A stretch of DNA of 64,000 nt from a virus (Duplodnaviria > Heunggongvirae > Uroviricota > Caudoviricetes): positions 1 to 64,000 of the IMG/VR virus record IMGVR_UViG_3300042569_003232; one strand, given 5' to 3'. Both the position numbers and the translations under genes were made by a program. Shown here piece after piece: positions 22,105 to 36,771 of this stretch. The notes below the pieces were generated by a model. The model searched no databases and was not told the DNA's origin. It saw only the letters and a program-made list of their open reading frames with translations. Positions within the stretch are counted from its first letter, which is position 1. The number at the start of each line of letters is the position of its first letter.

Positions 22105-22440
22105 TCAGAAAATGTGTCCCAATGTGTGGTTTGGTATATAATCCAAGGACAGTAAATAATTATTACGGAATGATACATGATATACATTTTTAGGAAAATA
22201 AATTAATGCAGTTAATTGATTGCCCTCACACCAGAAAGCATTTCCAACAGTTTTTGGTGAATACTTTAAGTTAATTAACAAATTGTGATTGCAATCAAAA
22301 CTTCCTCTAACAAATTCCAGTGTTCCTTTTAAACTAGTTAATTTATTAATACTGCAATCGAAATATCCAACATTTTTAGTTGTAATAATTTCTAATTTTC
22401 TTAAATTACGTTTTTGAAGGTAATAATCTATTGCACTCAT
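22105..22440 (-). CDS. LTSL-repeat family protein (about 3 repeats), C-terminal HLLTLDY-type tag
   Basis: FDCSINKLTSLKG / FDCNHNLLINLK repeats; C-terminus YLLSLDYIPNH. Confidence 0.6.
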   Translation of the reverse strand: MSAIDYYLQKRNLRKLEIITTKNVGYFDCSINKLTSLKGTLEFVRGSFDCNHNLLINLKYSPKTVGNAFWCEGNQLTALIYFPKNVYHVSFRNNYLLSLDYIPNHTLGHIF

Positions 22441-22443
22441 ATA

Positions 22444-23091
22444 TTATATTTTACGATTTGATGGGACGTAATCCATTGTTAATAAATGATTTTTTTTATA
22501 ATTTATATTATATGGATTTTTAGCAGAATAAATCAAACTCGTCAATTTATTAATATAACAAGAAAAATAACAAGAAGACTCTCCACCAATTCTTTTCGGT
22601 CCTCCTTTCAAAGTAATTAATTTATTATTCATACAAAAAAAACACCCATAAATATTTTTCGGACTTCCTTTCAAGTCAGTTAGTTCATTACTATAACAAC
22701 GAAAATTCCCATTTATAGTTTTCGGTGCTCCTTTTAAATTAATTAATTTATTATCACTGCAAGTGAAATGTCTGCCAACAGTTTCTGGACTTCCTTCTAA
22801 AGATGTTAATTCATTATTATCACAATAAAAATCCGCCCCGACTTCTTTCGGACCTCCTTTTAACGATTTTAATCTATTATATCTGCAATCAAAATCTCCA
22901 TCAATACGGGCTGGCGATCCTTCTAAACTAGTCAATCTGTTACTAAAACAATTATAGTCTTTTTTTACAAATTTTGGACCTCCTTTTAAGCTAATTAATT
23001 TATTAAAACTACCATCAAAACTTCCATTTATAATTTCTGGAATATTTTCTAACTTTTTTAAATTTTTATTATTAATATAAATGCTGCTCAT
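22444..23091 (-). CDS. LTSL-repeat family protein (about 8 repeats), C-terminal HLLTLDY-type tag
   Basis: N-terminal NLKKLENIPEII cap; repeats F-x-C-x-x-N-x-L-T-S-L-[KE]-G-x-P; C-terminus HLLTMDYVPSNRKI. Confidence 0.65.
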   Translation of the reverse strand: MSSIYINNKNLKKLENIPEIINGSFDGSFNKLISLKGGPKFVKKDYNCFSNRLTSLEGSPARIDGDFDCRYNRLKSLKGGPKEVGADFYCDNNELTSLEGSPETVGRHFTCSDNKLINLKGAPKTINGNFRCYSNELTDLKGSPKNIYGCFFCMNNKLITLKGGPKRIGGESSCYFSCYINKLTSLIYSAKNPYNINYKKNHLLTMDYVPSNRKI

Positions 23092-23094
23092 ATA

Positions 23095-23343
23095 TTATAG
23101 TTTATGATTTGATGGGACGTAATCCAATGTTAATAAATGATTTCTAGAATACAATAAAAGAATCATTTCTTTAGGACAATATAAAATGCTAGTTAATCTA
23201 TTATGGAAACATCCTAAATAACCCATAACAACTTTTGGAGAACCTTTAAGAGAAGTTATTTCATTGTAGTCACAATGTAACCCTTCAAAAAGCACTCTAG
23301 GAATATTTTCCAATTTTTTTAAATTTTTATAATAAAGATTCAT
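23095..23343 (-). CDS. LTSL-repeat family protein (about 2 repeats), C-terminal tag
   Basis: NLKKLENIP cap; C-terminus HLLTLDYVPSNHKL. Confidence 0.6.
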   Translation of the reverse strand: MNLYYKNLKKLENIPRVLFEGLHCDYNEITSLKGSPKVVMGYLGCFHNRLTSILYCPKEMILLLYSRNHLLTLDYVPSNHKL

Positions 23344-23347
23344 AAAT

Positions 23348-23752
23348 TTAAATTACTAAACTTGTTATGTAATCCATTGTCAAAAAATTATTTTCTCTGG
23401 TCCAGTATAACGCTACCGAATTCTTAGGAGAGTATATCATGCTAGTCAATTCATTTTCTACACAATGAAAAAAACATCCAACAACTCTGGGAGCACCGTG
23501 TAAAGTAGTTAATTTATTACAACTACAATTAAAACTTCTTCCTATTGTTCGTGGACTTCCTTTTAAATCGGTCAATTTATTATGAATGCAATAAAAAGAA
23601 CCCCAAACGCTTTTCGGACCTCCCTCTAAAGACGTTAAATGATTCTCGCTGCAATCAAAAATTCCATCTACATGTTCTGGAATATTCTCTAACTTCTTTA
23701 GATTTTTATTACTAATATAAACATCATTCATAAATTTTACAATTTGGAACAT
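23348..23752 (-). CDS. LTSL-repeat family protein (about 4 repeats), C-terminal tag
   Basis: NLKKLENIPEHV cap; C-terminus FLTMDYITSLVI. Confidence 0.6.
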   Translation of the reverse strand: MFQIVKFMNDVYISNKNLKKLENIPEHVDGIFDCSENHLTSLEGGPKSVWGSFYCIHNKLTDLKGSPRTIGRSFNCSCNKLTTLHGAPRVVGCFFHCVENELTSMIYSPKNSVALYWTRENNFLTMDYITSLVI

Positions 23753-24128
23753 AATCAGTTGTTAATAAATGATTTTCAGTAAAAACCACGGTACGCATAG
23801 TTTTAGGCGAGTATAAAAAATCAGTTAATTTATTACCTCTAATAAAAAACCCGCCTCCTATAAATCTTGGACCTTCTTTTAAAGTAGTTATTTTATTATG
23901 TTTACAAACAAAAAATTCACCAATTCTTTTTGGGCATCCCTTTAAACTAGTCAAATAATTCCAACTACAATTCACATATCCATCTACAATTTCTGGTGAT
24001 TCTGGAAAAATTTTATACTTTTCATTAAAAATCCAAATACATTTCATATTTTTACATATTTCTACAATAATTTGGAAAATAATCTCTTGATAAAAGATGA
24101 TTTTGTGCCGACCAAAAATAATGCGCAT
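23724..24128 (-). CDS. LTSL-repeat family protein (about 3 repeats), C-terminal tag
   Basis: C-terminus HLLTTDYVPNCKIYE. Confidence 0.55.
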   Translation of the reverse strand: MRIIFGRHKIIFYQEIIFQIIVEICKNMKCIWIFNEKYKIFPESPEIVDGYVNCSWNYLTSLKGCPKRIGEFFVCKHNKITTLKEGPRFIGGGFFIRGNKLTDFLYSPKTMRTVVFTENHLLTTDYVPNCKIYE

Positions 24129-24492
24129 TTTTAGGAGAATATAACAAACTAGTTAACTTATTTTCGTCACAATAAAATGTGTCTCCGACGAATTTAGGTG
24201 CTCCTTTTAAGCTAATTAGATTATTCATACTGCAAACGAAATCTATCCCCGTACTTTCTGGTCCTCCTAATAAATTGGTTAAAAAATTACTCCTGCAATT
24301 AAACATCCCCTTTACAATTTTCGGTGAACCATTTAAATTAGTTAAATGGTTATCCCGACAGTGAAAATTTCCATATATAATTTCTGGAATATTTTCCAAT
24401 TTTGTTAGACTTCTATTATCAAGGGTCAAATTACTCATCTTCGTTCTCTTGTGGCTTATGCACATCCGTTTGCATAGCATACTTTTCTCCAA
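24052..24492 (-). CDS. LTSL-repeat family protein (about 4 repeats), C-terminal tag
   Basis: SLTKLENIPEII cap; C-terminus HLLSRDYFPNY. The likely start is the internal Met (MSNLTL) near 24438. Confidence 0.55.
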   Translation of the reverse strand: MEKSMLCKRMCISHKRTKMSNLTLDNRSLTKLENIPEIIYGNFHCRDNHLTNLNGSPKIVKGMFNCRSNFLTNLLGGPESTGIDFVCSMNNLISLKGAPKFVGDTFYCDENKLTSLLYSPKNAHYFWSAQNHLLSRDYFPNYCRNM

Positions 24493-24874
24493 GAGAAATA
24501 TACATAAATGAGTAAACTCCTCCGAACAGCCAGCACAATGCAGACCAGTACCATTGATGAAATCCTAGCAACAGAATATAGAGTATAGTCAATAAAACTA
24601 CTATAATTTTACTAATCAAAAAATAAGCAGGAGGTTTCTTTGTTGCCGATTGATTAATATGTTTACAAAGAAAATAATAAACAATTGAAACCGGAATAGT
24701 GCAAAGGAAAAGAAAGTTGTAGCCATATGCCATATATTTTGCCACAACATTATTATAAATTGTTGCAAGATGAATGGTTACAAGAGGAATTAGGAATATT
24801 CCAAAGGAAATTATTTTATTAAATATTTTAATCATAATTTTTATTATTAAAAAGGGGTGGAAGAATTCTTCCAC
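24431..24874 (-). CDS. polytopic membrane protein
   Basis: Four hydrophobic segments. The listed N-terminus reads through the terminator hairpin, so the likely start is an internal Met near 24835. Confidence 0.4.
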   Translation of the reverse strand: MEEFFHPFLIIKIMIKIFNKIISFGIFLIPLVTIHLATIYNNVVAKYMAYGYNFLFLCTIPVSIVYYFLCKHINQSATKKPPAYFLISKIIVVLLTILYILLLGFHQWYWSALCWLFGGVYSFMYISLGEKYAMQTDVHKPQENEDE

Positions 24875-24884
24875 CCCTTTTTCT
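24854..24884. terminator. hairpin terminator
   Basis: ggggtggaagaattcttccacccc palindrome followed by T runs on both strands. Confidence 0.55.
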
Positions 24885-24895
24885 TGTTTTTTGTT

Positions 24896-25162
24896 TTATG
24901 CCAGATTCACATTCTTTTGCCGATCCCCTACAACTTTCATAATGTTGTGCTTTGTCTTAAAGACTTCCGCAGGATGATTAGCCACCCATGAATTATCTTT
25001 CGTAAATTCATAAAATGTTTCTTCTGTCATTCTCGCTTTGATTCGTACAATCAACGCATCCCAGAATTCACCAAGTTTATTTTGTGGCTGGTCATAAACT
25101 TGATCATAAACCCTGTTGTATACTGGTTCAACAACAGTTTCGGAATTTTCTGGCGTTTCCAT
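24896..25162 (-). CDS. hypothetical protein
   Basis: 88-aa ORF. Confidence 0.4.
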   Translation of the reverse strand: METPENSETVVEPVYNRVYDQVYDQPQNKLGEFWDALIVRIKARMTEETFYEFTKDNSWVANHPAEVFKTKHNIMKVVGDRQKNVNLA

Positions 25163-25594: not shown

Positions 25595-26635
25595 TTATGC
25601 AATTCCAATGATATTAATCTTACGATCATTGAAACGGAAATTAATGGCATCTTCCAAAGTTTTACATCTAGGATCAACTGCTTCAACATGCCAAACTCTT
25701 GTGGTTTGATTCAGCATCTTCAAGTGGGGAGCATAATCAACTCCGGGGAACAAGCAATTCATATCATGTAGTTCGTATTCGCTATTCGTCCACCATTCAT
25801 TGTCATAGTTTTCGTAGGTATCCAGTTTAGATCCGAATGAAAGCATTCGCTCAATTCCGACCTTTCGGATAAATTCCATACGAACATCGGCATTCGTAAT
25901 TTCAGTATAGCGATTAATGTCGATTTGACTGGAATGAGTGTTTGCCAACCAATCAGGAACAACAACACCGTTAATACAATAGTAATTCAAATCTCCATAT
26001 CCAGCATAAGAAATAGCAGGACCGCTATCATTATGGAATTGTTTATTCGCATTAAATTTCAATGTAGTGACTTTTTGGGAAGCAATTGCTACTTTATCCA
26101 TAAAGTAAACTGCACCCAATTGTGACATTTCCTTCCAGATAAGATACTTTTCCCGATATTCACCCAAATCGTCATTACAAAGATCCATGTAAAAATCAAA
26201 GAATGTATGGCTCAAAGAGTCAAGGCTACCTCCGAACAATGGATAGAAAAACTTGCCAATTTGAACCTTTTCAGTTTTATCGAAATTGTCAATTTCTTCA
26301 ACAAAAGGAACAGCTTCGAAATAATTTTTAATGTTTTCCTTAATACTGTTAATTGGATAACCTGCTTCAATAAAATGGGAAGCAACCCAGCCTTCAAGTG
26401 GATTATCTACAATAACTACCGGAGTTTTCGGAACTTCCAAAAAGATTTCTTGGAATTTATGAATTGTATCCACAGTCTGATCATAATCAAGACGATTTGT
26501 GGACAAAGCATTCTTAAATGCTTCAGCGAAAATGCTTGGAACTTTTTCGGTATTAATGTCGCTTAGTTTCATAGATTGGTTTGGTGATGGGTCTATTATA
26601 CACGGGGAAAAAGGGTTGTCAACGATTTTCTGCAT
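25595..26635 (-). CDS. hypothetical protein (346 aa)
   Basis: Long ORF with normal composition; no motif recognised. Confidence 0.5.
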   Translation of the reverse strand: MQKIVDNPFSPCIIDPSPNQSMKLSDINTEKVPSIFAEAFKNALSTNRLDYDQTVDTIHKFQEIFLEVPKTPVVIVDNPLEGWVASHFIEAGYPINSIKENIKNYFEAVPFVEEIDNFDKTEKVQIGKFFYPLFGGSLDSLSHTFFDFYMDLCNDDLGEYREKYLIWKEMSQLGAVYFMDKVAIASQKVTTLKFNANKQFHNDSGPAISYAGYGDLNYYCINGVVVPDWLANTHSSQIDINRYTEITNADVRMEFIRKVGIERMLSFGSKLDTYENYDNEWWTNSEYELHDMNCLFPGVDYAPHLKMLNQTTRVWHVEAVDPRCKTLEDAINFRFNDRKINIIGIA

Positions 26636-26897
26636 TTCTTCTGCTAAATTTCTCGTAAAATATGGAACCGTGATTAGGAACGTAATCCAAAGAAATTAAA
26701 ACATTAAATTCTGCTGAAAACTTGTGGGATGTTTTTGGAGAATATAATAAAGTTGTTAGTTTATTTCCCTGACAATAGTAAAACTGTGTATGTACAAATT
26801 TTAAACCTCCTTTTAAACTAGTTAAATTAAAATAACTATAATAGCATGTTCTACTAACATTCTTTACCGAAACGGTTATTATATTCATAAATATCAA
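26619..26897 (-). CDS. LTSL-repeat family protein (about 2 repeats), C-terminal tag
   Basis: C-terminus VLISLDYVPNHG. Confidence 0.55.
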   Translation of the reverse strand: MIFMNIITVSVKNVSRTCYYSYFNLTSLKGGLKFVHTQFYYCQGNKLTTLLYSPKTSHKFSAEFNVLISLDYVPNHGSIFYEKFSRRNAENR

Positions 26898-27232
26898 AAG
26901 TTGAAATTGTAGTACAAAATTATCGAATTCTCAGGAACATAATCCAAAGAAATTAAAACATTAAATTCTGTTGAAATATACCCTTTTATTTTTGGACAAT
27001 ATAAAAAAGTGGTCAATTTATTATTATGACAATTAAAATTTCTTTTCACGAATTTCAAAGAACCTTTTAAAGTAACTAATTCATTATAAGAACAATCAAA
27101 CCGACCGTGGATAAATTCTGGACTTCCCTTTAGATTACTTAAATAATTACCGCTGCAATCAAAAGAACCTTCCACTATTTTTGGAAAATTCTGTAATTCA
27201 GATAATCCTTTGTTAAAAACATCAACACTCAT
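26894..27232 (-). CDS. LTSL-repeat family protein (about 3 repeats), C-terminal tag
   Basis: LSELQNFPKIV cap; C-terminus VLISLDYVPENS. Confidence 0.6.
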   Translation of the reverse strand: MSVDVFNKGLSELQNFPKIVEGSFDCSGNYLSNLKGSPEFIHGRFDCSYNELVTLKGSLKFVKRNFNCHNNKLTTFLYCPKIKGYISTEFNVLISLDYVPENSIILYYNFNF

Positions 27233-27239
27233 GTTTAAA

Positions 27240-27500
27240 TTAATAGCTTATAAAATTATTTGAATAATCCAGAGTCAAAAAATTATTCCAGAATATAATC
27301 ATGTTAGCCTGTCTTTTAAAAATTATATTTATTTTCGTAACTTTAGGAGAAAACAAAGGACTTGTTAAATGGTTTTCCACCGCATATATATTATGTGTAT
27401 ATTTTGGGCATCCTTTTAAACTAGTCAACAGTTTTCTCTCACAATAGAATATTCTATCTACATTTTCAGGATAATTGTAAAATGTCAAATCGGTTTTCAT
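27240..27500 (-). CDS. LTSL-repeat family protein (about 2 repeats), C-terminal tag
   Basis: C-terminus FLTLDYSNNFISY. Confidence 0.5.
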   Translation of the reverse strand: MKTDLTFYNYPENVDRIFYCERKLLTSLKGCPKYTHNIYAVENHLTSPLFSPKVTKINIIFKRQANMIIFWNNFLTLDYSNNFISY

Positions 27501-27511
27501 ATTTTATACAG

Positions 27512-27907
27512 CTATTTAACAAGAGGAATATAATCCAATGAAAGAAAATGGTTGTTGTGATCATATTTTCTAGTTCCGAGCAATTTAGGAAAAAATAATA
27601 AATTAGTTAACCGATTATCATTAATAGCTAAACGCCATCCTACAAATTTTGGTCCTCCCTTTAAAGTAATCAAATTATTTCTAGCACATTCAAAATCTAA
27701 TCCAACTTCTTCTGGACCTCCAATTAAATCTGTTAGATAATTTAGATGGCACCAATAACTATTAACAACAATTTTCGGACCTCCTTTTAGACTCTTTAGA
27801 GAATTAGAACTACAATCAAAACTCCCCTCAATTTTAAAATATTCATTGTGTAATTCTTTTAAACCGAGTAACGATACATTATAACTTCCATCTTTAACTT
27901 TTTTCAT
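27512..27907 (-). CDS. LTSL-repeat family protein (about 4 repeats), C-terminal tag
   Basis: C-terminus HFLSLDYIPLVK. Confidence 0.6.
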   Translation of the reverse strand: MKKVKDGSYNVSLLGLKELHNEYFKIEGSFDCSSNSLKSLKGGPKIVVNSYWCHLNYLTDLIGGPEEVGLDFECARNNLITLKGGPKFVGWRLAINDNRLTNLLFFPKLLGTRKYDHNNHFLSLDYIPLVK

Positions 27908-27919
27908 ATATTAGGTAAT

Positions 27920-27960
27920 AAAAATGGTTAGATGGTTTATTCAGCCATCTAACCATTTTT
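27920..27960. terminator. bidirectional hairpin terminator
   Basis: aaaaatggttagatgg-tttattcag-ccatctaaccattttt. Confidence 0.6.
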
Positions 27961-27975
27961 AAGTTTTAATTTTTA

Positions 27976-28608
27976 TTATTCACTGGATTCCGCAGTTTCC
28001 ATATCAACTTCGCCAGAGTCCAGTTGCTTAGTTTCATGCAACAAGAAGTTGAAACTTTTCAGTTTAAATGCTTGCCATTCAAAAGGAACCATTTTTCGCA
28101 AAACAACTCCTTCTGCCCATACATCATTTTTACAAATAGTGCATTTCTTTTCCAGATAAGTATTAATCATTTTATCAAGAAAATCTTGATGCCAATGATT
28201 ATGAACACTCAAATCAGGAAAAAGATTTTCAGCCTTTCCATAATAATGTGTTTTGGGTGTTTTGAAACCGAATTTACGACAAAATGCTTCCAATTCTGGA
28301 TGAGAAAAAGTGTAAACATTTCCGCATGGACTTGTATAAGTTACGTTGAAAACATAAAAATCACAAGTATTTGGAGCACAGGAATAATCATATCCACGTT
28401 GGATAGGACTACCATTTGGTGTATATCCCACGATTTCACCCGTAACGGAAATGCCTTTACTCAACGAAGGGAAAATCTTATCTGCAACAATTTTCCAAAC
28501 ATCTGCATCATAAAAATGATTATGTTGTTGCTGATTTTCTTTTTTCTTAAACAATTGTTTTATTTTTTTAATCATATTTTTTATATCTCCATTTATAGCC
28601 ATAAGCAT
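27976..28608 (-). CDS. C-terminal portion of a split RNA-ligase-like nucleotidyltransferase (motifs III-V)
   Basis: GEIVG (motif III-like), AEGVVLRK (motif IV-like) and FKLKSF (motif V-like). It lies immediately downstream of the GIY-YIG gene that separates it from 29364..30197. Confidence 0.4.
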   Translation of the reverse strand: MLMAINGDIKNMIKKIKQLFKKKENQQQHNHFYDADVWKIVADKIFPSLSKGISVTGEIVGYTPNGSPIQRGYDYSCAPNTCDFYVFNVTYTSPCGNVYTFSHPELEAFCRKFGFKTPKTHYYGKAENLFPDLSVHNHWHQDFLDKMINTYLEKKCTICKNDVWAEGVVLRKMVPFEWQAFKLKSFNFLLHETKQLDSGEVDMETAESSE

Positions 28609-29341
28609 GTTTAACTTTATTTTTCAATGCATAGTTTATACACACATTCGAACAAAGTCCTAGAAATTTAGTGGCATCTTTCTGTGATTCAAACGAACGA
28701 ATTACGTTACCATTCATATCCAACATTTCAATAGCTTTTTTACATTTTTCTCTATTTCGAGACTTTATAGGCTTTATTTTTTCACCTAAAAAAACTCTAC
28801 TCCAAAAAAATCCATAACATGTTCTATCAGACTTTAAACTCGCTTTTCCAATATTTGAAGAATTATAATTTAAACATCTTTCGATTTCCTTTAAACCGTT
28901 CCATTTAGTAATGAATGTTCCATCCAAATCATATTGATATATTTCAATCGAAGATGGATTATCTTTTCCAAATTTCCCTTTTAAGGTAGAATTCACCGAT
29001 TTTTTTAAATTAGACTCTTTAGTATGTTTAACTCCTAAACAATTTCCTGCGGTTTTGCATATATTGTATTCTGGAGTCAATGAATTTATATAGAACTGTT
29101 CTCGTATTATTAATTCTTCTTTAGAACAATCTTCTAATATTTCAAATGTAAAAGAGTTTTTGCCATATTTATTCCATGCTCTTTGTAAGACTATTGAATG
29201 ATGTCTATTTGTCTCAAGTCTATTTTTATGTGTATAAAATCTTGCTAGTACATCGACTGCACTGCCTATATAACATTTATTGTTTATTGTATTGGTTATT
29301 TTATATATTCCTGAATTTGAACGAGTTTTTGTTTTTCTCAT
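28568..29341 (-). CDS. GIY-YIG homing endonuclease (I-TevI/Seg-like)
   Basis: GIYKITN...YIGSA...R...N..LQRAWNKYG...F.F.ILE...EL..REQFYI is a canonical GIY-YIG core; C-terminal basic DNA-binding region. Confidence 0.85.
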   Translation of the reverse strand: MRKTKTRSNSGIYKITNTINNKCYIGSAVDVLARFYTHKNRLETNRHHSIVLQRAWNKYGKNSFTFEILEDCSKEELIIREQFYINSLTPEYNICKTAGNCLGVKHTKESNLKKSVNSTLKGKFGKDNPSSIEIYQYDLDGTFITKWNGLKEIERCLNYNSSNIGKASLKSDRTCYGFFWSRVFLGEKIKPIKSRNREKCKKAIEMLDMNGNVIRSFESQKDATKFLGLCSNVCINYALKNKVKHAYGYKWRYKKYD

Positions 29342-29363
29342 TCAAATATTTACTGTAAAGTAA

Positions 29364-30197
29364 TTAAGAATCTACTAAATTTGTATTTTTCAAGACACGA
29401 CGACTGGAATACAACATTCCATATTCAGTTTCTTGAACTTTACAGCCAAAGAATTTTGCAATTTTATCTTTCCAAGATAGATTTTTATTAACTAATACAT
29501 GACTGACCACAAAATTACATCCATGGATTTTTTCAGTAATTGCAATATAATCATCGGGGTCAATCTTTTCCACTTCTTTTTTCAAATGACTGGTATCAGG
29601 ATGAAAATGGAATTGGTTTTCAATCAACTTGGATTTATACTTTTTAGTATTTCCCTTTGGTTTGTTACCAGATGGAACCTTTTCCACCATGTTGCGAGGA
29701 ACGTACTTTTTACACAAAACATGGTTACAAATTTCGTCAAAATCAGTTCCAACATCTTTTTCAGAAATTTTAATTTCCTTTGAAAGAAAATCTTTACAGA
29801 ACTTTTCAATTTCAGAAACAGGAACAACGTATCCTTCGCTTTTTTCTCCACGCAATCGAACTGCTTTTACTCGACAATTCGCTTCAAACATTCCTTTTTG
29901 AAGGGAATCTTGGTTAAGAGAGTTGTCTCGAAAAGAATTAGTGTATTTCAGGAAATCTGCGGAAATTGCACATTCCAAAGGAAAATAAACATACAAATCA
30001 TTTTCTTTTGCAGACAATCCAGTAATTACGTTATTACCGTAGATTGCTAGGCATTGCAAGCGATCTGCATTAAAATGGGGTCGCAAGTTCTGCAATTTTA
30101 CAATTGTTGCGAGATAATTTTCGTTATATTCTTTAGATTTTGAGTACATATTATTTAACGGAGGGAGTAACAATGCAATTTCCGTGGTTTGGAGCAA
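29364..30197 (-). CDS. N-terminal portion of a split RNA-ligase-like nucleotidyltransferase (motif I KIHGCN)
   Basis: EKIHGCNFVV, resembling Rnl2 motif I (KIHGTN), lies near the C-terminus of this 277-aa ORF. The ORF stops 22 nt before the GIY-YIG gene. Confidence 0.4.
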   Translation of the reverse strand: MLQTTEIALLLPPLNNMYSKSKEYNENYLATIVKLQNLRPHFNADRLQCLAIYGNNVITGLSAKENDLYVYFPLECAISADFLKYTNSFRDNSLNQDSLQKGMFEANCRVKAVRLRGEKSEGYVVPVSEIEKFCKDFLSKEIKISEKDVGTDFDEICNHVLCKKYVPRNMVEKVPSGNKPKGNTKKYKSKLIENQFHFHPDTSHLKKEVEKIDPDDYIAITEKIHGCNFVVSHVLVNKNLSWKDKIAKFFGCKVQETEYGMLYSSRRVLKNTNLVDS

Positions 30198-30891: not shown

Positions 30892-31197
30892 TCAATAGTA
30901 ATCCAAAGTTAACAAATGATTTTTTTGAAAATCACGCAATCTTTTTATTTTCGGACTATATATTAAACTAGTTAAATAGTTACCAAATATCTCAAATGCC
31001 CAACCTACAATTTCTGGTCCGCCTCTTAAACTAATTAATTTATTATCAAAACATAAATAATGTTGATTTACAATTTTTGGTCCATTTTGTAAATCCACTA
31101 ATTTATTGTTATTACATATAAAACTTCCGTATATAATTTCTGGAAATTTATCCAAAACAGTTAGCTGTTTGTAGCTGCAATTAAAATGTTTCGTCAT
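30892..31197 (-). CDS. LTSL-repeat family protein (about 3 repeats), C-terminal tag
   Basis: C-terminus HLLTLDYY. Confidence 0.6.
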   Translation of the reverse strand: MTKHFNCSYKQLTVLDKFPEIIYGSFICNNNKLVDLQNGPKIVNQHYLCFDNKLISLRGGPEIVGWAFEIFGNYLTSLIYSPKIKRLRDFQKNHLLTLDYY

Positions 31198-31495
31198 GTC
31201 TTGGAAAATAATCTAAAGTTAGTAAATGGTTCATCGTACAAAATGGTATAACCTGCGATTTTGGAGTATATAATAAACTAGTCAAATTATTTCTATTACA
31301 ATAAATCCGTTTATCAATTTTTTTTGAAATACCTTTTAAACTAGTCAATTTATTATAACTGCACGAAAAATATCCTTTTATATGTTTTGGCGATCCATCT
31401 AATGTAATCAAATTATTATGATAACAAATAAGACTTTCCTCCATAATTTCTGGCAAAAAGGGAAGTTTTGTTAAATTTTTATCAGAAATATGCAT
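31181..31495 (-). CDS. LTSL-repeat family protein (about 3 repeats), C-terminal tag
   Basis: NLTKLPFLPEIM cap; C-terminus HLLTLDYFPRHDETF. Confidence 0.6.
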   Translation of the reverse strand: MHISDKNLTKLPFLPEIMEESLICYHNNLITLDGSPKHIKGYFSCSYNKLTSLKGISKKIDKRIYCNRNNLTSLLYTPKSQVIPFCTMNHLLTLDYFPRHDETF

Positions 31496-31498
31496 AAT

Positions 31499-31801
31499 TC
31501 AAAAATAATCCAAAGTTAGTAAATGGTTTTTATAATAACTAAAATTCATATATCTACGTTTTTTAGGAAAATATATTAAAGATGTTAAATAATTGTTAGC
31601 ACAAAAGAACATGTTTTCTACTTTTTTAGGCGATCCTTTTAAACTAATTAATTCGTTGCAATAACACACAAAACCAGTTACGATTTCTGGTCCGCCCTCT
31701 AAAGTTGATAATTTATTATAACCACACAAAAAATATTCCTCTATAATTCTCGGAATTGATAATTTTGTCAAACTGTTTAAATTTTTACCAGAAAGATTCA
31801 T
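31499..31801 (-). CDS. LTSL-repeat family protein (about 3 repeats), C-terminal tag
   Basis: C-terminus HLLTLDYF. Confidence 0.6.
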   Translation of the reverse strand: MNLSGKNLNSLTKLSIPRIIEEYFLCGYNKLSTLEGGPEIVTGFVCYCNELISLKGSPKKVENMFFCANNYLTSLIYFPKKRRYMNFSYYKNHLLTLDYF

Positions 31802-31915
31802 TTTATATACAAGGAATATAATCCTTTGTTAGTAAACTGTTAGTAAAATAAAAACCTATAATTATTTTAGGTGCAGGTAACAGGCAAGTTCTTGAATATG
31901 TATTAGAGAGGCGCA

Positions 31916-32230
31916 TTATTCGTTATAAGAGATATAATCCAAAGTTAATAAAAGATTTTTGAAATAATAAAAGTTGTTGATTATTTTGGGTGCATATAAC
32001 AGACTAGTCAAATTGTTATCAAAACAATCATAAATTCCCGTATGCATAATATTTTTCGGTCCCCCTCGCAATGTGGTTAAATCGTTAGCACTGCAATCGA
32101 AATTTCCAAATACAAATTTCGGTCCTCCTTCTAAATTACGTAATTTATTAAAACCGCAATCAAAATCTCCAATTATAATTTCTGGAATATTTTCCAATTT
32201 TATTAATTTTTTATACCCACTCATATACAT
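31916..32230 (-). CDS. LTSL-repeat family protein (about 3 repeats), C-terminal tag
   Basis: KLIKLENIPEII cap; C-terminus LLLTLDYISYNE. Confidence 0.6.
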   Translation of the reverse strand: MYMSGYKKLIKLENIPEIIIGDFDCGFNKLRNLEGGPKFVFGNFDCSANDLTTLRGGPKNIMHTGIYDCFDNNLTSLLYAPKIINNFYYFKNLLLTLDYISYNE

Positions 32231-32380
32231 TTTTCATTTTTTTCATTTTTATTTTCAAACCAGTTCATTTACTGTATGCCCCTTTTTTGAAGTGTCAACT
32301 ATTTTTTACCAGAAAAAATTTTTGTTTTCTCATTGACAAAGGGGAAAAATAATCCATGATGCCCATCAACCAAATATTCT

Positions 32381-33652: not shown

Positions 33653-33693
33653 TAAAAAAGGGGTTTCTGCAAAATTGCAGAAACCCCTTTTTT
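33653..33693. terminator. strong bidirectional rho-independent terminator
   Basis: aaaaaaggggtttctgcaaaattgcagaaacccctttttt: a 12-bp GC-containing stem with an A run on one side and a T run on the other. Confidence 0.75.
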
Positions 33694-33722: not shown

Positions 33723-33989
33723 ATGACAGACGAAGAAATTAAATCAAACTTGGAAAACATTGCTGACGATTTTGGAATTGAATTAACTTCCAGACAAACC
33801 AAAAAACTTAGCAAATTGATTGCAGAACTAAGTGAAGAAAATGCAAGTCGGGAAGAAATTTTTGAAGAGTTGAAAACTGTTTCTCCAGATGATGAAGATG
33901 AAGATTGGAATGAATTAATCGAAGCTATGGTCGATTTTGTGGTTGACAATATGGATGACTTCGAAGAATATCAAGATGATGAAATTTAA
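33723..33989 (+). CDS. hypothetical highly acidic protein
   Basis: 88 aa, Asp/Glu-rich. Confidence 0.4.
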   Translation: MTDEEIKSNLENIADDFGIELTSRQTKKLSKLIAELSEENASREEIFEELKTVSPDDEDEDWNELIEAMVDFVVDNMDDFEEYQDDEI

Positions 33990-34018
33990 AAACATCTTAA
34001 CTAGAAAATCATTTCATT

Positions 34019-34342
34019 ATGAAATTTGATCGTTCTTTTAAAGAATTGGAAAAATTACCAAGATCACCAAAAATTATACATGGAAGTTTCTTTTTGTGTG
34101 GTTATAATTCGTCAACTAATTTGGAAAATTCTCCCCAAACGGTAGAAGAAAATTTTCACTGTTATCATAATAGATTAACTAGTTTATATGGAATATCCAG
34201 ATTTATTGGAGGTCACTTATATGGGGAATTTAATCGTTTGTCTAATTTAATATATGGTCCAAAAATTATAACTTCTATATCTATTAAATACAATCACTTA
34301 TTATCTTTGGATTATTCTAACACAAGAAATTTATGGAAATAA
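34019..34342 (+). CDS. LTSL-repeat family protein (about 3 repeats), C-terminal tag
   Basis: ELEKLPRSPKII cap; C-terminus HLLSLDYSNTRN. Confidence 0.6.
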   Translation: MKFDRSFKELEKLPRSPKIIHGSFFLCGYNSSTNLENSPQTVEENFHCYHNRLTSLYGISRFIGGHLYGEFNRLSNLIYGPKIITSISIKYNHLLSLDYSNTRNLWK

Positions 34343-34836
34343 ATTTATCCGGTAAAAGATTACCAAAATTACCAGAACTTCCTGAAATTATAAATGGCGA
34401 TCTTTGGTGTCATAATAATAAATTAACTACATTAAAAGGATCGCCGAAAATCGTAAATGGAAGTTTCTATTGCAGAAGAAACCGATTAACTAGTTTAGAA
34501 AAAGGGCCAAAATTTGTCGGAACCCATTTCTGGTGTAGCGTGAACAGGTTGACTAGTTTAAAAGGAGGTCCAGAAAATGTGGGTGACGAATTTCATTGTA
34601 GTGATAACGATTTAACTAATTTAGAAGGATCACCAAAGAGTGTTGGTAATTTTTGGTGCGAAGAAAATGATTTAATTACTTTATATGGCGCACCAAAAAG
34701 AGTAAATGGATGTTTTATGTGTAATCGTAATAAGATAACAAGTCTAATTTATACACCAAAAAATCCTTTTGAGTTATCGTACATTGCTAACTGTTTATTA
34801 TCTCTTGATTATATCCCGAATAGTGTTCATATATAA
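34333..34836 (+). CDS. LTSL-repeat family protein (about 6 repeats), C-terminal tag
   Basis: RLPKLPELPEII cap; repeats NxLT[ST]LxGxPxxV; C-terminus CLLSLDYIPNSVHI. Confidence 0.65.
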   Translation: MEINLSGKRLPKLPELPEIINGDLWCHNNKLTTLKGSPKIVNGSFYCRRNRLTSLEKGPKFVGTHFWCSVNRLTSLKGGPENVGDEFHCSDNDLTNLEGSPKSVGNFWCEENDLITLYGAPKRVNGCFMCNRNKITSLIYTPKNPFELSYIANCLLSLDYIPNSVHI

Positions 34837-34859
34837 ACCGTATTTATTTAGTTACCATT

Positions 34860-35120
34860 ATGAATATCGACCTTTCTTGTAAAGATTTACCAGAACTACC
34901 ATCTTTTCCAAAAATTTTAGATGGTTATTTTTGGTGTGCCGACAATCTTTTAACTAGCCTAAAAGGATGTCCAAAAATTATAAATTCTAGTTTTGATTGC
35001 TCTTATAATAAACTAGTTTATTTACTAGAAACCCCAAAAATAGTAATGGGAAGAAGTTGGTATTCTTATAATCATTTACTGTCAAGGGATTATATTCCAT
35101 TTAATAAACATCTAGTATGA
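34860..35120 (+). CDS. LTSL-repeat family protein (about 2 repeats), C-terminal tag
   Basis: C-terminus HLLSRDYIPFNKHLV. Confidence 0.55.
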   Translation: MNIDLSCKDLPELPSFPKILDGYFWCADNLLTSLKGCPKIINSSFDCSYNKLVYLLETPKIVMGRSWYSYNHLLSRDYIPFNKHLV

Positions 35121-35440
35121 ATATTGATTATTCTTTTAAAAAATTAACAAAACTGCCAGAATTACCAGATTTTGTAAAAGGAATGGCAGTTTTCAGTAAT
35201 AATCAAATAACTAGCTTACAAGGATCACCTAGAATTGTACTTGGTTATTTTGACTGTTTCAGAAATAACTTATTTACTCTAAAAGGAGGTCCGAAAATTG
35301 TAAAAGGGAATTTTAATTGCGGTTGGAATAACTTGAATAGTTTATTATATAGTCCAAAATTATCAAGAAATGTATTTTGTTATTATAATAATCTGATTTC
35401 TTTTGATTACGTTTCAAGTGTAAAAAATTTCCAAATATGA
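35117..35440 (+). CDS. LTSL-repeat family protein (about 3 repeats), C-terminal tag
   Basis: KLTKLPELPDFV cap; C-terminus NLISFDYVSSVKNFQI. Confidence 0.6.
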   Translation: MNIDYSFKKLTKLPELPDFVKGMAVFSNNQITSLQGSPRIVLGYFDCFRNNLFTLKGGPKIVKGNFNCGWNNLNSLLYSPKLSRNVFCYYNNLISFDYVSSVKNFQI

Positions 35441-35817
35441 TAAATATAACATATTTAAAAAATAATGGAATTAAAATCTTTCATGATAACGGCAATAGTT
35501 TGATTTGTATACTTAGAGGTTTGACTAGTTTAGAAGATTGCCCTAAAAATATAAATGATCACGTTAATATTAAACACAATAAATTAACTAATTTAAAGGG
35601 ATCGCCACAAACTATAAGAGGAGGGTATAATTGTAGTTGCAATATTTTGTTTACTTTAAAAGGAGGTCCAAAAAATGTCGGAGGAGCATTTTATTGTTCG
35701 AGAAATAGACTAACCAGTTTGTTATATTTTCCTAAAGAACCACTTTGGACCTCATATCATCATAATAACTTGCTGTCAGTTGATTATATTCCAATTAATC
35801 TGGAAAACATATTATGA
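35437..35817 (+). CDS. LTSL-repeat family protein (about 3-4 repeats), C-terminal tag
   Basis: C-terminus NLLSVDYIPINLENIL. Confidence 0.6.
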   Translation: MINITYLKNNGIKIFHDNGNSLICILRGLTSLEDCPKNINDHVNIKHNKLTNLKGSPQTIRGGYNCSCNILFTLKGGPKNVGGAFYCSRNRLTSLLYFPKEPLWTSYHHNNLLSVDYIPINLENIL

Positions 35818-36197
35818 ATGTTTATTACAATAACCAAGGTTTAAAGAAAATACCAGTTTTTCCTAAAATTTTTGATGGCAATTTTGAAGTTGCCATCAAT
35901 CAGTTGACTAGCTTAAAATGTTCCCCAGAAGTTGTCAGAGGACACTTCGACTGTGCTGCTAATAATTTATCGGATTTAAAAGGAGCACCAAAATTTGTTA
36001 AACGTTATTTTAATTGTCAATTTAACCAATTAACTAATTTAAAAGGAGCACCGAAATTTGTAGGGAGACTTTTTTGGTGTTCCTTTAATAAATTAACTAA
36101 TTTGATATATTCTCCTAAAACAACACTTCGGGTAATGTGCAACAGTAATTCGTTATTAACAATGGATTATATCTCCGCTCAAAAAGATGAACTTTAA
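35814..36197 (+). CDS. LTSL-repeat family protein (about 4 repeats), C-terminal tag
   Basis: C-terminus SLLTMDYISAQKDEL. Confidence 0.6.
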   Translation: MNVYYNNQGLKKIPVFPKIFDGNFEVAINQLTSLKCSPEVVRGHFDCAANNLSDLKGAPKFVKRYFNCQFNQLTNLKGAPKFVGRLFWCSFNKLTNLIYSPKTTLRVMCNSNSLLTMDYISAQKDEL

Positions 36198-36771
36198 ACT
36201 AACATTAGAAAATTTAGAGGAACTTCCCAATCTTCCAGAAGTAATTCTTGGAAATTTTGATTGTAATTATACTGATTTAATTACACTTAAAAATATTCCA
36301 AAAATTATAGAAGGAGGTTTCTTTTGTAGTTATACTGGAATATCATCATTAGAAAATGGTCCAAAAAGTGTTGGAGGAAGTTTTATCTGTAATTATAATA
36401 GCTTAATTAATTTAAAAGGAGGTCCAAAAAGAATTGGAGGACATTTGCTTTGTAATGGCAATAAATTAACTACTTTAGAAGGAATGCCGCAAAGTATTGG
36501 AGGAGGATTTGAATGTAGCAATAATAAGTTAGTTAATCTAATTGGAGCACCGAAAATAGTACATGGTTTTTTCAATTGTGAATTTAACTATTTAGTTACC
36601 TTAAAAGGTTCACCAAAAATTATAGATGGTTATTTTCATATTTACCGAAACAAATTAAATAGTTTTTTATTTGGACCAAAAATTTTTAAAGATGATTTTT
36701 TCCCAACTTTTGGCAAAGGTAATCACTTGATTTCTATGGACTATTGCTCTAATGTAAACTTCGACACATGA
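36187..36771 (+). CDS. LTSL-repeat family protein (about 7 repeats), C-terminal tag
   Basis: LENLEELPNLPEVI cap; Gly-rich repeat variant (GGPKRIGG); C-terminus HLISMDYCSNVNFDT. Confidence 0.6.
   Translation: MNFKLTLENLEELPNLPEVILGNFDCNYTDLITLKNIPKIIEGGFFCSYTGISSLENGPKSVGGSFICNYNSLINLKGGPKRIGGHLLCNGNKLTTLEGMPQSIGGGFECSNNKLVNLIGAPKIVHGFFNCEFNYLVTLKGSPKIIDGYFHIYRNKLNSFLFGPKIFKDDFFPTFGKGNHLISMDYCSNVNFDT

Follow-up and report, generated by a model that had tools for sequence, protein, structure and literature searches.

The type III effector LRRs (leucine-rich repeats)—YopM, the IpaH proteins (IpaH1.4, IpaH3, IpaH7.8, and IpaH9.8), SspH1/SspH2, and SlrP—are cytosolic protein-binding modules that recognize their targets through the concave face of a solenoid, and they are built of short, 20-22-residue repeats of the "LPX" class, the second half of which is of the N-x-L-T-S-L-P type. 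InlJ of Listeria monocytogenes has a 21-residue period and a cysteine at the L6 position of LxxLxLxxN that creates a ladder; the protein, an adhesin of about 850 aa, is secreted and anchored to the wall, and besides its repeats it has a signal peptide, an internalin cap, an inter-repeat region, MucBP repeats, and LPXTG. Features of both recur in the 64-kb stretch of DNA analyzed here (the window), from an uncultured large phage, where 21 open reading frames (ORFs) in four tandem arrays each encode a capped LRR protein of 82-215 aa. To judge by sequence, InlJ, with its cysteine-ladder LRR, and the short LRRs of YopM/IpaH/SspH are the nearest relatives: InlJ (PDB 3bz5) was the best match in a PDB sequence search at E=3.1e-13, with SspH2 at 1.5e-5, and InlJ was also the most frequent NCBIfam match (5/6 members), the single best E-value there being that of SspH2.

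How close is close? Compared with the effectors, the window's unit is 21 residues long, with Cys replacing an aliphatic residue and G-x-P replacing P-x-L-P; NCBIfam matches reach 20-40 bits where the cutoffs stand at 1243-1700; there is neither the NEL E3-ligase domain nor the secretion signal of IpaH/SspH; and the LRRs are phage-encoded, as 21 stand-alone genes. Compared with InlJ, the window proteins have none of the parts that accompany its LRR, from signal peptide to LPXTG, and they reach at most 37.7 bits with NF033187, the cutoff of which is 1700. A sequence-only reading of this DNA had likened the repeat to BspA-type LRR_5, a likeness that is unsupported because Pfam LRR_5 gave no match at E<=1 and the period is 21 residues. 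That reading had also found no family to name, which is half right: the repeat type is that of a huge metagenomic LRR superfamily, which has no name but the longer members of which pass Pfam LRR_4.

That superfamily, itself uncharacterized, divides at 50% identity into no fewer than 7,403 clusters. It has in common with the window proteins the 21-aa unit (F-x-C-x-x-N-x-L-T-S-L-E-G-A-P-x-x-V-G-G, 40-50% identity over the repeats), the N-cap ((D/N)-(L/I)-S-x-K-x-L-x-x-L-P...V-x-G-x-F-x-C), and a recurrent multi-copy state in large and huge phages. Members include CDS0008 of Vibrio phage VB_VaC_TDDLMA and tandem paralogs in the 735-kb phage LR756501, with many copies in MAGs (Ca. Muiribacterium, gut Alphaproteobacteria, and Chlorobiaceae); PHROGs 21719 and 7816 match weakly. 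Unlike the window's proteins, in which a Pfam search found no domain besides the LRR solenoid, other members carry N-terminal globular domains (e.g., "...NYTINxDGSIDVDGDV...") and unrelated C-terminal extensions and run from 180 to >2,000 aa.

Multigene families of small interaction modules are known from other viruses, as in the LRR, ankyrin, and FNIP expansions of giant viruses (BFVD structural matches to our proteins include LRR proteins of Marseillevirus, Edafosvirus, Mimivirus, and uncultured Caudovirales), and the zinc-ribbon expansion of Bacillus phage G, at roughly 35 copies, was called "unprecedented" (PMC7824862). The window's family, in contrast, belongs to a virus of a prokaryote and is made up of LRR-only proteins, and position-specific diversification is documented between strains together with a cassette-like turnover of repeats and genes. 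By analogy only, one may think of the VLRs of jawless vertebrates, which are likewise capped LRR solenoids with variable cassette number and hypervariable concave residues. VLRs, however, are somatically assembled, secreted, and closed by disulfide-bonded LRRNT/LRRCT caps, whereas the window's diversity is germline (21 genes) and would come from ordinary recombination; we claim no homology past the LRR fold.

The repeat, its caps, and the predicted solenoid

With a repeat HMM made from 79 units, none of the 21 ORFs falls below 19 bits, all remaining six-frame ORFs of the window stay at 7.7 bits or less, and no further member was found there. The earlier count of about 21 members in four tandem arrays proved exact, coordinates and strands included; of the size range that came with it (62-215 aa), only the upper end stood, the shortest protein having 82 aa. 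All 21 ORFs are intact. Their median identity is 40%, without clustering by array, and on this ground the paralogs are evidently old.

The repeat period is 21 residues (63 nt), not the roughly 22 first proposed, and DNA repeat families lie in the 63-nt register with up to 25 copies each. Each protein has 1-8 units, where 2-8 had been proposed. Within the consensus x-F-x-C-x-x-N-x-L-T-S-L-K-G-[SG]-P-K-x-V-x-G, per-position entropy is minimal at F2, C4, N7, L9, L12, and P16 and maximal at positions 1, 3, 5, 6, and 8, that is, at the x positions of LxxLxLxxNxL, which form the concave face of the LRR consensus and are here enriched in Y, H, W, D, R, and S. In the predicted structure, F2, C4, N7, L9, L12, G14, and P16 would build the solenoid, buried cysteine ladder included, and positions 1, 3, 5, 6, and 8 would line a concave beta-sheet, the putative face for ligand binding. 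AF2 gives the repeats a pLDDT of 95-98 and folds the N-cap into the solenoid with that same confidence, which is lower over the final 10-35 residues and moderate in the C-cap (82 falling to 58); for a single 104-aa member (31181..31495), pLDDT is 87.4. Each gene codes for an LRR solenoid of the simplest kind, one that caps itself and consists of an N-cap half-repeat, 1-8 units of 21 residues, and a lineage-specific C-cap. An N-terminal cap had been ascribed to every gene; most have it, and in about four (26619, 27240, 27512, and 35437), it is degenerate.

A shared C-terminal motif, also claimed earlier, is borne out: N-x-[LF]-[LI]-[ST]-x-D-Y ends 21/21 proteins, after a modified repeat, L-T-S-L-[IL]-Y-x-P-K. 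The full C-cap (L-[IL]-Y-x-P-K ... N-H-L-L-[ST]-L-D-Y) occurs in 0 of about 380 sequences retrieved from other lineages, and among these sequences, the domain-less architecture ending in N-x-L-L-[ST]-x-D-Y appears to be confined to this phage lineage. Could the motif then be a handle? One might imagine an adaptor library in which the C-terminal N-H-L-L-[ST]-L-D-Y-[IV]-P docks LRR-bound cargo on one shared phage or host machine, such as a protease or ATPase, much as in F-box/LRR and IpaH LRR-NEL proteins but with one protein to recognize and another to catalyze. No element is more conserved than the C-cap, which is also lineage-specific (its N, D, and Y do not vary across 20 aligned sequences), the drop in AF2 confidence is compatible with a partly exposed tail, and the closest structural relatives, IpaH and SspH, are substrate-recognition modules of E3 ligases. 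Nevertheless, the motif fits the LRR consensus N-x-L-x-x-L following a modified repeat, so that a plain structural C-cap explains its conservation; the tail past D-Y varies from 1 to about 15 residues; and no candidate partner has been identified. We regard such docking as quite improbable.

Four arrays and their junctions

Array 1, on the minus strand, has six genes. The 111-aa paralog at 22105..22440 (3 canonical repeats plus C-cap) is followed by the longest member, of 215 aa and 8 repeats (22444..23091), the exact protein of which was found again in 47 index blocks of metagenome assemblies, and by the shortest, of 82 aa and 2 repeats (23095..23343). The remaining three are longer as ORFs than as probable proteins: 23348..23752 (134 aa; 4 repeats) likely starts at 23731 to give 127 aa, as in the JGI gene call; 23724..24128 (134 aa; 3 repeats) at 24047, giving 107 aa; and 24052..24492 (146 aa; 4 repeats) at 24438, giving 128 aa. 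All five of these also end in the C-cap. Two copies of a 57-nt repeat, D11 (22436..22492 and 23087..23143, 95% identical), each comprising the end of the C-cap, the spacer, and the next start codon, flank the 215-aa gene on both sides at a spacing of 651 nt and would be a likely substrate for gene gain and loss through homologous recombination.

In array 2, also on the minus strand, 26619..26897 (89-92 aa, with internal ATG 26888 the probable start for 89 aa; 1-2 repeats plus C-cap) has a degenerate N-terminus, shows 74% nt identity to 26933-27096, and carries a 44-nt junction repeat, D12, at 95% identity; its sequence marks it as a partial duplicate of the neighboring LRR gene. That neighbor, 26894..27232 (112 aa; 3 repeats plus C-cap), recurs as an exact protein on 23 contigs, the longest of 135,915 bp. 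Beyond it lie the most degenerate member, 27240..27500 (86 aa; repeat HMM 19.3 bits; C-cap motif), and 27512..27907 (131 aa; 4 repeats plus C-cap). Array 3, again on the minus strand, consists of 30892..31197 (101 aa), 31181..31495, which overlaps the next gene by 17 nt, and 31499..31801 (100 aa), each with 3 repeats and C-cap, and of 31916..32230 (104 aa), the first gene left of a strand switch, with a TTGACA box 68 nt upstream.

Array 4 is on the plus strand: 34019..34342 (107 aa; C-cap motif), 34333..34836 (167 aa; 6 repeats plus C-cap), 34860..35120 (86 aa; 2 repeats plus C-cap), 35117..35440 (107 aa; C-cap motif; ATGA overlap with the upstream gene), 35437..35817 (126 aa; atypical N-terminus; C-cap motif), 35814..36197 (127 aa; 4 repeats plus C-cap), and 36187..36771 (194 aa; about 7 repeats plus C-cap). 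The last overlaps a downstream lipoprotein-like gene by ATGA (36768/36771), and for the 126-aa protein, the index of the contig collection lists a near-identical variant, P0213, in 38 blocks.

Neighboring genes had been said to overlap by ATGA or 10-11 nt. Both kinds exist (ATGA at 35117/35120, 35437/35440, 35814/35817, and 26894/26897; 10 and 11 nt at 34333 and 36187), but the rule is not general: there is a 17-nt overlap at 31181, and the remaining LRR gene junctions are gaps of 3-11 nt. The packing is operon-like all the same, and translational coupling of adjoining genes is plausible.

Divergence between strains

The related strain L130 shows how these genes change. Interspersed non-LRR genes differ from it with a dN/dS of 0.03 (dS 0.18), and LRR genes with 0.46 (dS 0.21). 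Within the LRR positions, dN/dS is 1.18 on the concave face vs. 0.15 in the scaffold, and an independent ortholog set (L003, L007, and L008) gives 0.93 vs. 0.09; the concave values rest on few codons (51 and 118), and gene conversion among paralogs can inflate apparent ortholog divergence. The scaffold is under purifying selection, which, like the recurrence of the exact 215-aa protein in metagenome assemblies, speaks for functional constraint. A concave value of about 1 could reflect relaxed constraint instead of positive selection.

Individual genes tell the same story of rapid turnover. In array 1, the window's 6 genes compare with 4 in L130, where the counterpart of 23724..24128 is missing and a chimeric 88-aa gene joins the N-terminus of the 215-aa protein to the C-terminus of the 111-aa protein, the last 39 codons of which are collinear with its 3' part. 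L130 orthologs of 24052..24492 and 27512..27907 have only about 60-63% and about 70% aa identity, respectively; the L007 ortholog of 31916..32230 has 65%; and the L008 ortholog of 34019..34342 has 129 aa and 52% identity, L008 lacking the 167-aa gene altogether. For 23095..23343, the L003 allele is divergent (43 differences, ~32 nonsynonymous and 11 synonymous) between nearly identical flanks, and 35814..36197 has one 21-aa repeat (exactly 63 nt) more than the 106-aa allele of five other strain contigs. Predicted binding faces, gene numbers, and repeat numbers, then, change far faster than the neighboring genes, which fits a predicted arms-race set of binders, and diversification of this kind is what one would expect of the binding-module library suggested from the sequence.

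It may be asked whether such diversity needs an adversary at all. The proteins might serve the phage itself, scaffolding or chaperoning its proteins or nucleic acids—in a replication factory, for example—as members of a redundant family where relaxed constraint and drift did the rest. Most members are mildly basic (pI 8-9.6), genes of replication and RNA repair surround the arrays, the paralogs are old, and the concave dN/dS is not clearly above 1. Yet redundant, drifting copies should decay, and these have a constrained scaffold and no broken ORF; the raised rate falls mainly on the face by which LRRs canonically bind ligands; and phage-encoded targets are near-invariant between the same strains, so their binders have no reason to change. 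We think drift an explanation with little chance of being correct.

Genomic context and a proposed function

What could a phage do with 21 such proteins? Our proposal, which we hold with about even confidence, is that they act in the cytoplasm as a germline-encoded set of binders for host proteins that vary, diversified by substitution and recombination; where the proteins act, that their ligands are proteins, that these belong to the host, and when the genes are expressed is what we infer. Made from a non-structural (replication/early) part of the genome, each paralog would bind a different or variable host protein—most likely one for defense or one that otherwise limits infection—and sterically block, sequester, or re-scaffold it. 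New specificities would arise by concave-face substitutions and by unequal recombination between 63-nt units and conserved cap/junction sequences, which would add or remove single repeats, fuse neighboring genes, and gain or lose whole genes. Against this proposal, PADLOC models gave no match to the LRR proteins.

Host range, adhesion, and anti-defense decoys had been put forward from the sequence as possible uses; of these, the genomic neighborhood favors an intracellular role over adhesion. The only recognizable genes of the window are those for ligases, RNR, clamp loaders, DNA polymerase, NAMPT, tRNAs, and homing endonucleases, which places the arrays in a replication/nucleotide-metabolism region; no structural gene lies within the window, and no LRR protein has a signal peptide, a TM-like N-terminus, or an anchor domain. 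That the proteins are cytoplasmic does not follow from the cysteine ladder, since InlJ, the best sequence match, is an extracellular adhesin. LRR domains are found in phage host-recognition proteins, too, and receptor-binding proteins also evolve fast.

Might the proteins, then, be adhesins on the virion or outside the cell, with caps that dock on tail, baseplate, or capsid and variable concave faces that meet cell-surface or environmental ligands? Fast diversification and copy-number change are typical of receptor-binding proteins as well, phage Goslar has predicted host-recognition proteins (DUF7941) with LRR or beta-helix domains, Vibrio phage pir03 has an annotated BspA-type LRR protein, InlJ itself works at the surface, and the conserved N- and C-caps could be a common docking element. 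Besides the absent structural genes and signal peptides, anchoring, fibre, and Ig-like domains are missing as well; AF2 makes the N-cap part of the solenoid and the C-cap is only moderately modeled; the N-cap is found across many other superfamily architectures and is therefore a structural cap and no lineage-specific docking signal; and 21 separate adaptors of 9-25 kDa would be unprecedented. Adhesion is thus unlikely, if somewhat less so than adaptor docking or drift.

To return to the proposed cytoplasmic binders and their surroundings, a divergent strand switch with TTGACA boxes separates arrays 3 and 4, with array 3 abutting the switch and array 4 beginning some 1.6 kb to the right of it. 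Judged at consensus level only, the region has 111 promoter-like sites vs. 88 +/- 9 expected from shuffles. The Vibrio phage homolog adjoins DnaB and has an RNA ligase near it.

Twenty-one LRR genes in four tandem arrays

How large is this family, and where does it end? An ORF listing of 21-38 kb recovered 21 LRR genes in exactly the four intervals where the sequence-only reading had placed about that number: six ORFs at 22105-24492 (array 1), four at 26619-27907 (array 2) and four at 30892-32230 (array 3), all on the minus strand, and seven at 34019-36771 (array 4) on the plus strand. Together, they occupy about 7.8 kb, or ~12% of the 64-kb window. A repeat HMM of 79 units, extracted in register, was searched against every six-frame ORF of the window; it scored at least 19 bits in each of the 21 and at most 7.7 bits in any other ORF, and because of this gap, we take the family to be exactly these 21 genes.

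The repeat had been judged to be roughly 22 residues long, but the N-x-L-x-x-L cores are spaced 21 residues apart, and at the DNA level, there are repeat families of up to 25 copies in a 63-nt register, at 60-75% identity. The consensus unit is x-F-x-C-x-x-N-x-L-T-S-L-K-G-[SG]-P-K-x-V-x-G, in which N7 is invariant (79 of 79 units) and L9, L12, P16, C4 and F2 are nearly so. A common C-terminal motif, also part of the earlier description, closes every protein: N-x-[LF]-[LI]-[ST]-x-D-Y is present in 21 of 21, with a modified unit, L-T-S-L-[IL]-Y-x-P-K, preceding it, and the proteins end 1-15 residues past the last LRR. Sizes run from 82 to 215 aa; that is, the upper bound first proposed (215 aa) stands, and the lower one (62 aa) gives way to a shortest member of 82 aa. 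For four of the ORFs, internal ATG codons are probably the true starts, yielding 107, 128, 127 and 89 aa.

The genes are packed closely. Overlap by ATGA, expected along with overlaps of 10-11 nt, occurs at four LRR-LRR junctions and again between the last LRR gene and the next gene (at 36768); three other junctions overlap by 10, 11 and 17 nt, the last of these outside the expected range, and the remainder are not overlaps but gaps of 3-11 nt. No Shine-Dalgarno motif was found in any gene of 21-37 kb, and given this and the tight junctions, coupled translation or re-initiation among the LRR genes is plausible. Good matches to TTGACA-N16/17-TAtAAT end only ~6-10 nt before an ATG (for example, minus strand: 3039, 10870, 30867 and 1181; plus strand: 40330, 54645 and 62853), and this proximity, along with the missing Shine-Dalgarno motif in 21-37 kb, suggests leaderless or Shine-Dalgarno-independent translation. 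A Bacteroidota host, an idea prompted by the same missing motif, gained no support, as the -33/-7 promoter motif was not enriched (3 found vs. 5.2 expected).

Up to 32230, the genes point leftward, and from 32381 on, they point rightward; array 3 abuts this strand switch, and the start of array 4 lies about 1.6 kb to the right of it. The 150-bp gap between (32231-32380) holds two back-to-back TTGACA boxes and the minimum of the cumulative GC skew, and may mark either a divergent promoter region for early genes or an origin of replication. With respect to their transcription, arrays 1 and 2 are each immediately preceded by a long, perfect, A/T-flanked palindromic hairpin (24849-24882 and 27919-27961, with stems of 15 and 19 bp) that resembles a bidirectional intrinsic terminator. 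Arrays 1 and 2 would, therefore, need promoters of their own, of which none was convincingly identified.

Fold, family and relatives

What kind of LRR is this? The proteins conform to the LRR fold, a right-handed solenoid of tandem units of 20-30 residues with the LxxLxLxxNxL core, a concave parallel beta-sheet and an Asn ladder, and AlphaFold2 turned both the 215-aa protein and a 104-aa member into confident solenoids, with pLDDT of 95-98 over the N-cap (an N-terminal half-repeat) and the repeats. The C-cap, the element that closes each protein, was moderately confident when modeled with the paralog alignment (pLDDT 82 falling to 58). A PDB sequence search returned internalin J, a 21-residue cysteine-ladder LRR (E=3.1e-13), and SspH2 (E=1.5e-5). 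These matches and the AlphaFold2 solenoids assign the proteins to the bacterial short-repeat class; they are genuine LRR proteins, LRRs and nothing else. The repeat joins an IpaH/YopM-like second half (N-x-L-T-S-L...P) to an InlJ-like core Cys. What we call the N-cap corresponds to the latter half of an LRR unit, and in the C-terminal motif, one recognizes the N-x-L-x-x-L core of a final unit in modified form. One might instead imagine a library of adaptors, each docking through the conserved C-terminal tail onto a shared machine, but a structural cap explains that motif more simply, and we consider such adaptors improbable. The notion that the I-P-E of the N-cap is a capsid-targeting or cleavage signal was dropped, since AlphaFold2 folds the N-cap into the solenoid at pLDDT 95 or higher.

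Assigning a family name is harder. The sequence-only reading could offer none, and in Pfam and NCBIfam, no LRR member searched reached a curated threshold; what that reading missed is that the repeat belongs to a vast, uncharacterized metagenomic superfamily. In Pfam, only sub-threshold matches to LRR_4, LRRNT and DUF4893 appeared, the best window member scoring 20.8 bits against LRR_4 (PF12799), where the gathering threshold is 27 bits; longer homologs in the superfamily pass LRR_4 at 28-44 bits, several with precomputed PF12799 hits. The suggested resemblance to BspA-type LRR_5 repeats has to be abandoned: eight members gave no LRR_5 match at E<=1, and the period is 21 rather than the 23 or more (approximately) of the TpLRR type. 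PHROGs gave weak matches to 21719 and 7816, both families of unknown function, and PADLOC-DB v2 gave none at E<=0.01 for five LRR members and four neighbors.

Well-studied LRR proteins differ from these in what surrounds the repeats. A class 1 internalin has a signal peptide, an internalin N-cap, the LRR, an Ig-like inter-repeat region and a wall anchor, whereas the phage proteins have hydrophilic N-termini and no extra domains; the InlJ model NF033187 matched the repeats only, at 23-38 bits against an NCBIfam cutoff of 1700, which keeps the family well apart from the known internalin group. IpaH/SspH/SlrP effectors have an N-terminal secretion signal and, behind the LRR domain, a catalytic NEL domain at the C-terminus, and the SspH2 model for these E3 ligases (NF011917) likewise matched over the LRR only, at 20-40 bits against a cutoff of 1243. 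YopM-like effectors are LRR-only, with LPX units of 20/22 residues, a two-helix N-terminal cap and delivery by type III secretion.

The superfamily itself is large. From a collection of 5.8 billion proteins, the 215-aa member retrieved 5,112, of which the few with a source name are each a "hypothetical protein," and when 1.84 billion representatives at 50% identity were searched with a profile, 7,403 clusters matched at E<=1e-3; a search of the genome contig collection with the 215-aa protein gave no relatives. Superfamily proteins share the 21-aa unit (typically ...N-x-L-T-S-L-E-G-A-P-x-x-V-G-G-x-F-x-C...) and the N-cap motif, and they range from about 180 to >2,000 aa, with N-terminal globular domains and unrelated C-termini. 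The domain fusions of the long members, LRR_4 and one PcfJ-like domain only, provide no clue to function. The Vibrio jumbo phages VB_VaC_TDDLMA and SRILMA carry the repeat in a 212-aa "hypothetical protein" adjoining DnaB and near an RNA ligase, Lak phages also have it, and LRR proteins of giant viruses and uncultured phages are related by fold. The LRR unit occurs at 18 tblastn places across the 735-kb phage LR756501, among them a tandem array of four paralogs of ~245-295 aa (18683-22324 of L129, the piece LR756501.1 215442-256472) with the 21-aa unit behind a shared N-terminal domain. Metagenome-assembled genomes of Ca. Muiribacterium, gut and rumen Alphaproteobacteria, Chlorobiaceae, Sulfurovum and others contain matches 63 nt apart, and contigs of Ca. 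Muiribacterium halophilum reach 10-16 pattern matches per 6-8 kb. Given these tandem paralogs and this density, expansions of this particular LRR type recur in unrelated large genomes.

The C-cap, L-[IL]-Y-x-P-K...N-H-L-L-[ST]-L-D-Y, was found only in this phage and its relatives at >=77% nucleotide identity. Six of the 240 superfamily proteins first retrieved carry it, all from this lineage, as do none of 139 further sequences from a C-cap profile search of the 1.84 billion representatives. Scans with the back-translated cap turned up one true match (the same phage) and two chance matches among IMG/VR viral contigs, and one true (the same phage, 99.9% identical) and one chance match among JGI metagenome contigs. 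All of this suggests that the cap is absent elsewhere, and only suggests it, because generic multi-repeat proteins swamped the profile search.

A conserved scaffold and a fast concave face

The paralogs share a median identity of 40% (range 26-58%), and the best match lies in the same array for 6 of the 21, compared with 4.8 expected by chance, meaning that they do not cluster by array. They are old. Recent segmental amplification, such as might be driven by homing endonucleases, was rejected on both counts.

Between strains, matters move faster. The window and L130, a strain contig at 85-91% nucleotide identity, were compared over four non-LRR genes and seven LRR orthologs: the non-LRR genes, interspersed with the arrays, are 97.8-100% identical in protein (dN/dS 0.03, dS 0.18), whereas the LRR orthologs are 60-96% identical (dN/dS 0.46, dS 0.21). 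Within the LRR genes, dN/dS is 1.18 at the codons of the concave face (repeat positions 1, 3, 5, 6 and 8; a small codon sample), 0.15 at those of the scaffold (2, 4, 7, 9, 12, 14, 16 and 19) and 0.49 at the rest. An independent set of strain contigs (L003, L007 and L008) gave 0.93 for the concave face, 0.09 for the scaffold and 0.07 for a neighboring non-LRR gene. In dN/dS terms, then, a concave face near 1 changes about 8-10 times faster than a scaffold at 0.09-0.15, although a concave value of about 1 from small codon samples is not proof of positive selection. Gene conversion may contribute to the divergence as well. In strain L003, the 82-aa gene alone has 43 differences, against ~10 kb of adjacent sequence that is nearly identical.

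The LRR genes are by far the fastest-evolving loci of the region between strains, with change concentrated on the predicted ligand-binding face, which makes them, in our view, strong candidates for genes that determine the interaction with the host. Tyr, His, Trp, Asp, Arg and Ser are over-represented at the concave positions, as is typical of surfaces that bind proteins. Could the proteins instead be scaffolds for the phage's own components, drifting under relaxed constraint? Partners of that sort are near-invariant between the same strains, a poor fit that leads us to give the idea little credence.

Repeats and entire genes also come and go between strains. The 127-aa gene of the window has exactly one 21-aa unit more than the 106-aa allele of five other strain contigs, the 167-aa gene is missing from the relative L008, and array 1 has six genes in the window vs. 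four in L130. In L130, an 88-aa gene of that array is a chimera: it is collinear with the opening 40 codons of the 215-aa gene and then with the closing 39 of the 111-aa gene. Two copies of a 57-nt junction repeat, 95% identical and spaced 651 nt apart, flank the 215-aa gene, and judging by sequence, this repeat and the 63-nt units would evidently serve as substrates for unequal recombination. Genes targeted by DGRs have a near-identical template/variable repeat pair, adenine-specific differences and a nearby reverse transcriptase. We rejected DGR targeting, since 21-38 kb contains no template/variable pair (no long near-identical pair at all, apart from junction repeats of 44-57 nt); there is also no reverse transcriptase among the annotated genes of the window.

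Possible function and genomic setting

The phage, thus, carries 21 minimal capped LRR solenoids with a conserved scaffold, a fast ligand-binding face, and a turnover of cassettes and genes between strains. What might such proteins do? The window (30% GC) comes from an uncultured large phage, and the same LRR proteins are found again on contigs as long as 135,915 bp, as well as in dozens of metagenome-assembly index blocks. In the search for a close cultured phage, megablast found only a 72-nt HNH match, and tblastn with the neighboring ATPase found <=41% identity to phages of many different hosts; the same ATPase found nothing in IMG/VR. The recognizable genes of the 64 kb are all non-structural: NAMPT, PRPP synthetase, DNA ligase, two RNA ligases, class I RNR, clamp-loader subunits, DNA polymerase, a UvdE-like endonuclease, a PHROG-850 RNA-binding protein (47431-49137), HNH and GIY-YIG endonucleases, and seven tRNAs. 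The LRR proteins have hydrophilic N-termini, no transmembrane segment, 2-9 Cys and a pI mostly of 8-9.6. Adhesins displayed on the virion would also evolve fast, and LRRs do occur in some phage host-recognition proteins, but here, the context is non-structural and no anchor domain, nor an anchor of any other kind, was found, making adhesins unlikely in our view.

We give roughly an even chance to the LRR proteins being cytoplasmic binders of variable host proteins, expressed from the non-structural part of the genome and acting stoichiometrically. The target of each would be a variable host protein, a defense or other infection-limiting factor being the most plausible, which the binder would block, sequester or scaffold; YopM, an LRR-only effector, and IpaH/SspH, through their LRR domains, recognize their targets in this manner. 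More tentatively, and with rather more doubt than belief, we propose a germline, cassette-built set of 21 minimal LRR binders, evolving somewhat as immune receptors do, that would neutralize variable host defense or other infection-limiting proteins inside the cell. Three processes would change such a set: single 63-nt repeats would be gained or lost, recombination at the conserved caps would fuse or delete genes, and substitutions would concentrate on the concave face. If this is so, counter-defense or host takeover by phages would involve a new effector class, the LRR-only proteins, and these would also be a naturally occurring library of stable, small binders.

Eukaryotic immunity and bacterial effectors both make classic use of LRR proteins for recognition; to our knowledge, a role for such proteins in phage biology is almost undescribed. 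Matsushima et al. (2021) reportedly dealt with the LRRs of dsDNA viruses, and our literature searches on phage LRR families turned up no description either of the present family or of another LRR-only family with several copies in a phage. Neither the fold nor the notion that viruses can encode expanded families of repeat proteins is new, and the repeat type sits within a vast uncharacterized superfamily. New, as far as our searches of databases and literature show, are the LRR-only architecture with its own C-cap, the expansion to 21 such genes in a phage, and direct evidence of concave-focused diversification with cassette-like turnover. Small, soluble and complete from cap to cap, the 21 proteins provide an experimental handle and could be expressed as baits. 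Because the repeat type occurs in at least 7,400 metagenome protein clusters and in huge phages, the function of one member would annotate a very large unannotated family, and the minimal capped solenoids of 82-130 aa may serve as binder scaffolds.

Several neighbors deserve mention. Between arrays 2 and 3, on the minus strand, an RNA ligase (PHROG 968; Pfam RNA_ligase/PHA02142) lies in two parts within 27976-30197, the N-terminal part at 29364-30197 and the C-terminal part at 27976-28608, separated by a GIY-YIG/NUMOD1 homing-endonuclease gene (28568-29341, minus); it could be a split gene or could reflect an intron or intein-like insertion. A dense NAD-salvage and RNA-repair block at 11633-19698 holds the second RNA ligase (11633-12634), DNA ligase (12652-13767), NAMPT (15214-16824), a YqeY-like protein, PRPP synthetase (17510-18397) and a Band_7 protein (18808-19698), a content that suggests counter-measures against NAD-depleting or tRNA-cleaving host defenses. 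There are two tRNA-Met(CAT) genes, at 8807-8891 and 21169-21244; the strain-contig copy of the latter aligns to the former at 98.8% over 85 nt, which makes this a tRNA gene duplicated at a distance of about 12 kb.

Directly upstream of array 4 and preceded by a strong terminator hairpin (33654-33693), a plus-strand gene at 33723-33989 encodes an extremely acidic 88-aa protein (C-terminus ...DEDEDWNELIEAMVDFVVDNMDDFEEYQDDEI) that is highly conserved in L008 (dN/dS about 0.07); its composition is, speculatively, like that of DNA mimics or anti-restriction proteins. At the other end of the array, a plus-strand gene at 36768-37190 begins within an ATGA that it shares with the stop of the last LRR gene; the encoded 140-aa protein combines a lipoprotein-like signal sequence (MKTISIFFIISCLCSC...) with a weak match to the 3D domain, and it may be a cell-wall-active or exported protein cotranscribed with array 4. 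Finally, two strain contigs, L132 and L133, have about 1.0 kb that the window lacks (L132 16238-17209 vs. window about 41739-42023). It lies just upstream of the DNA-polymerase-like gene and holds a minus-strand gene for a product of 323 aa; this strain-variable insertion is possibly a mobile endonuclease.
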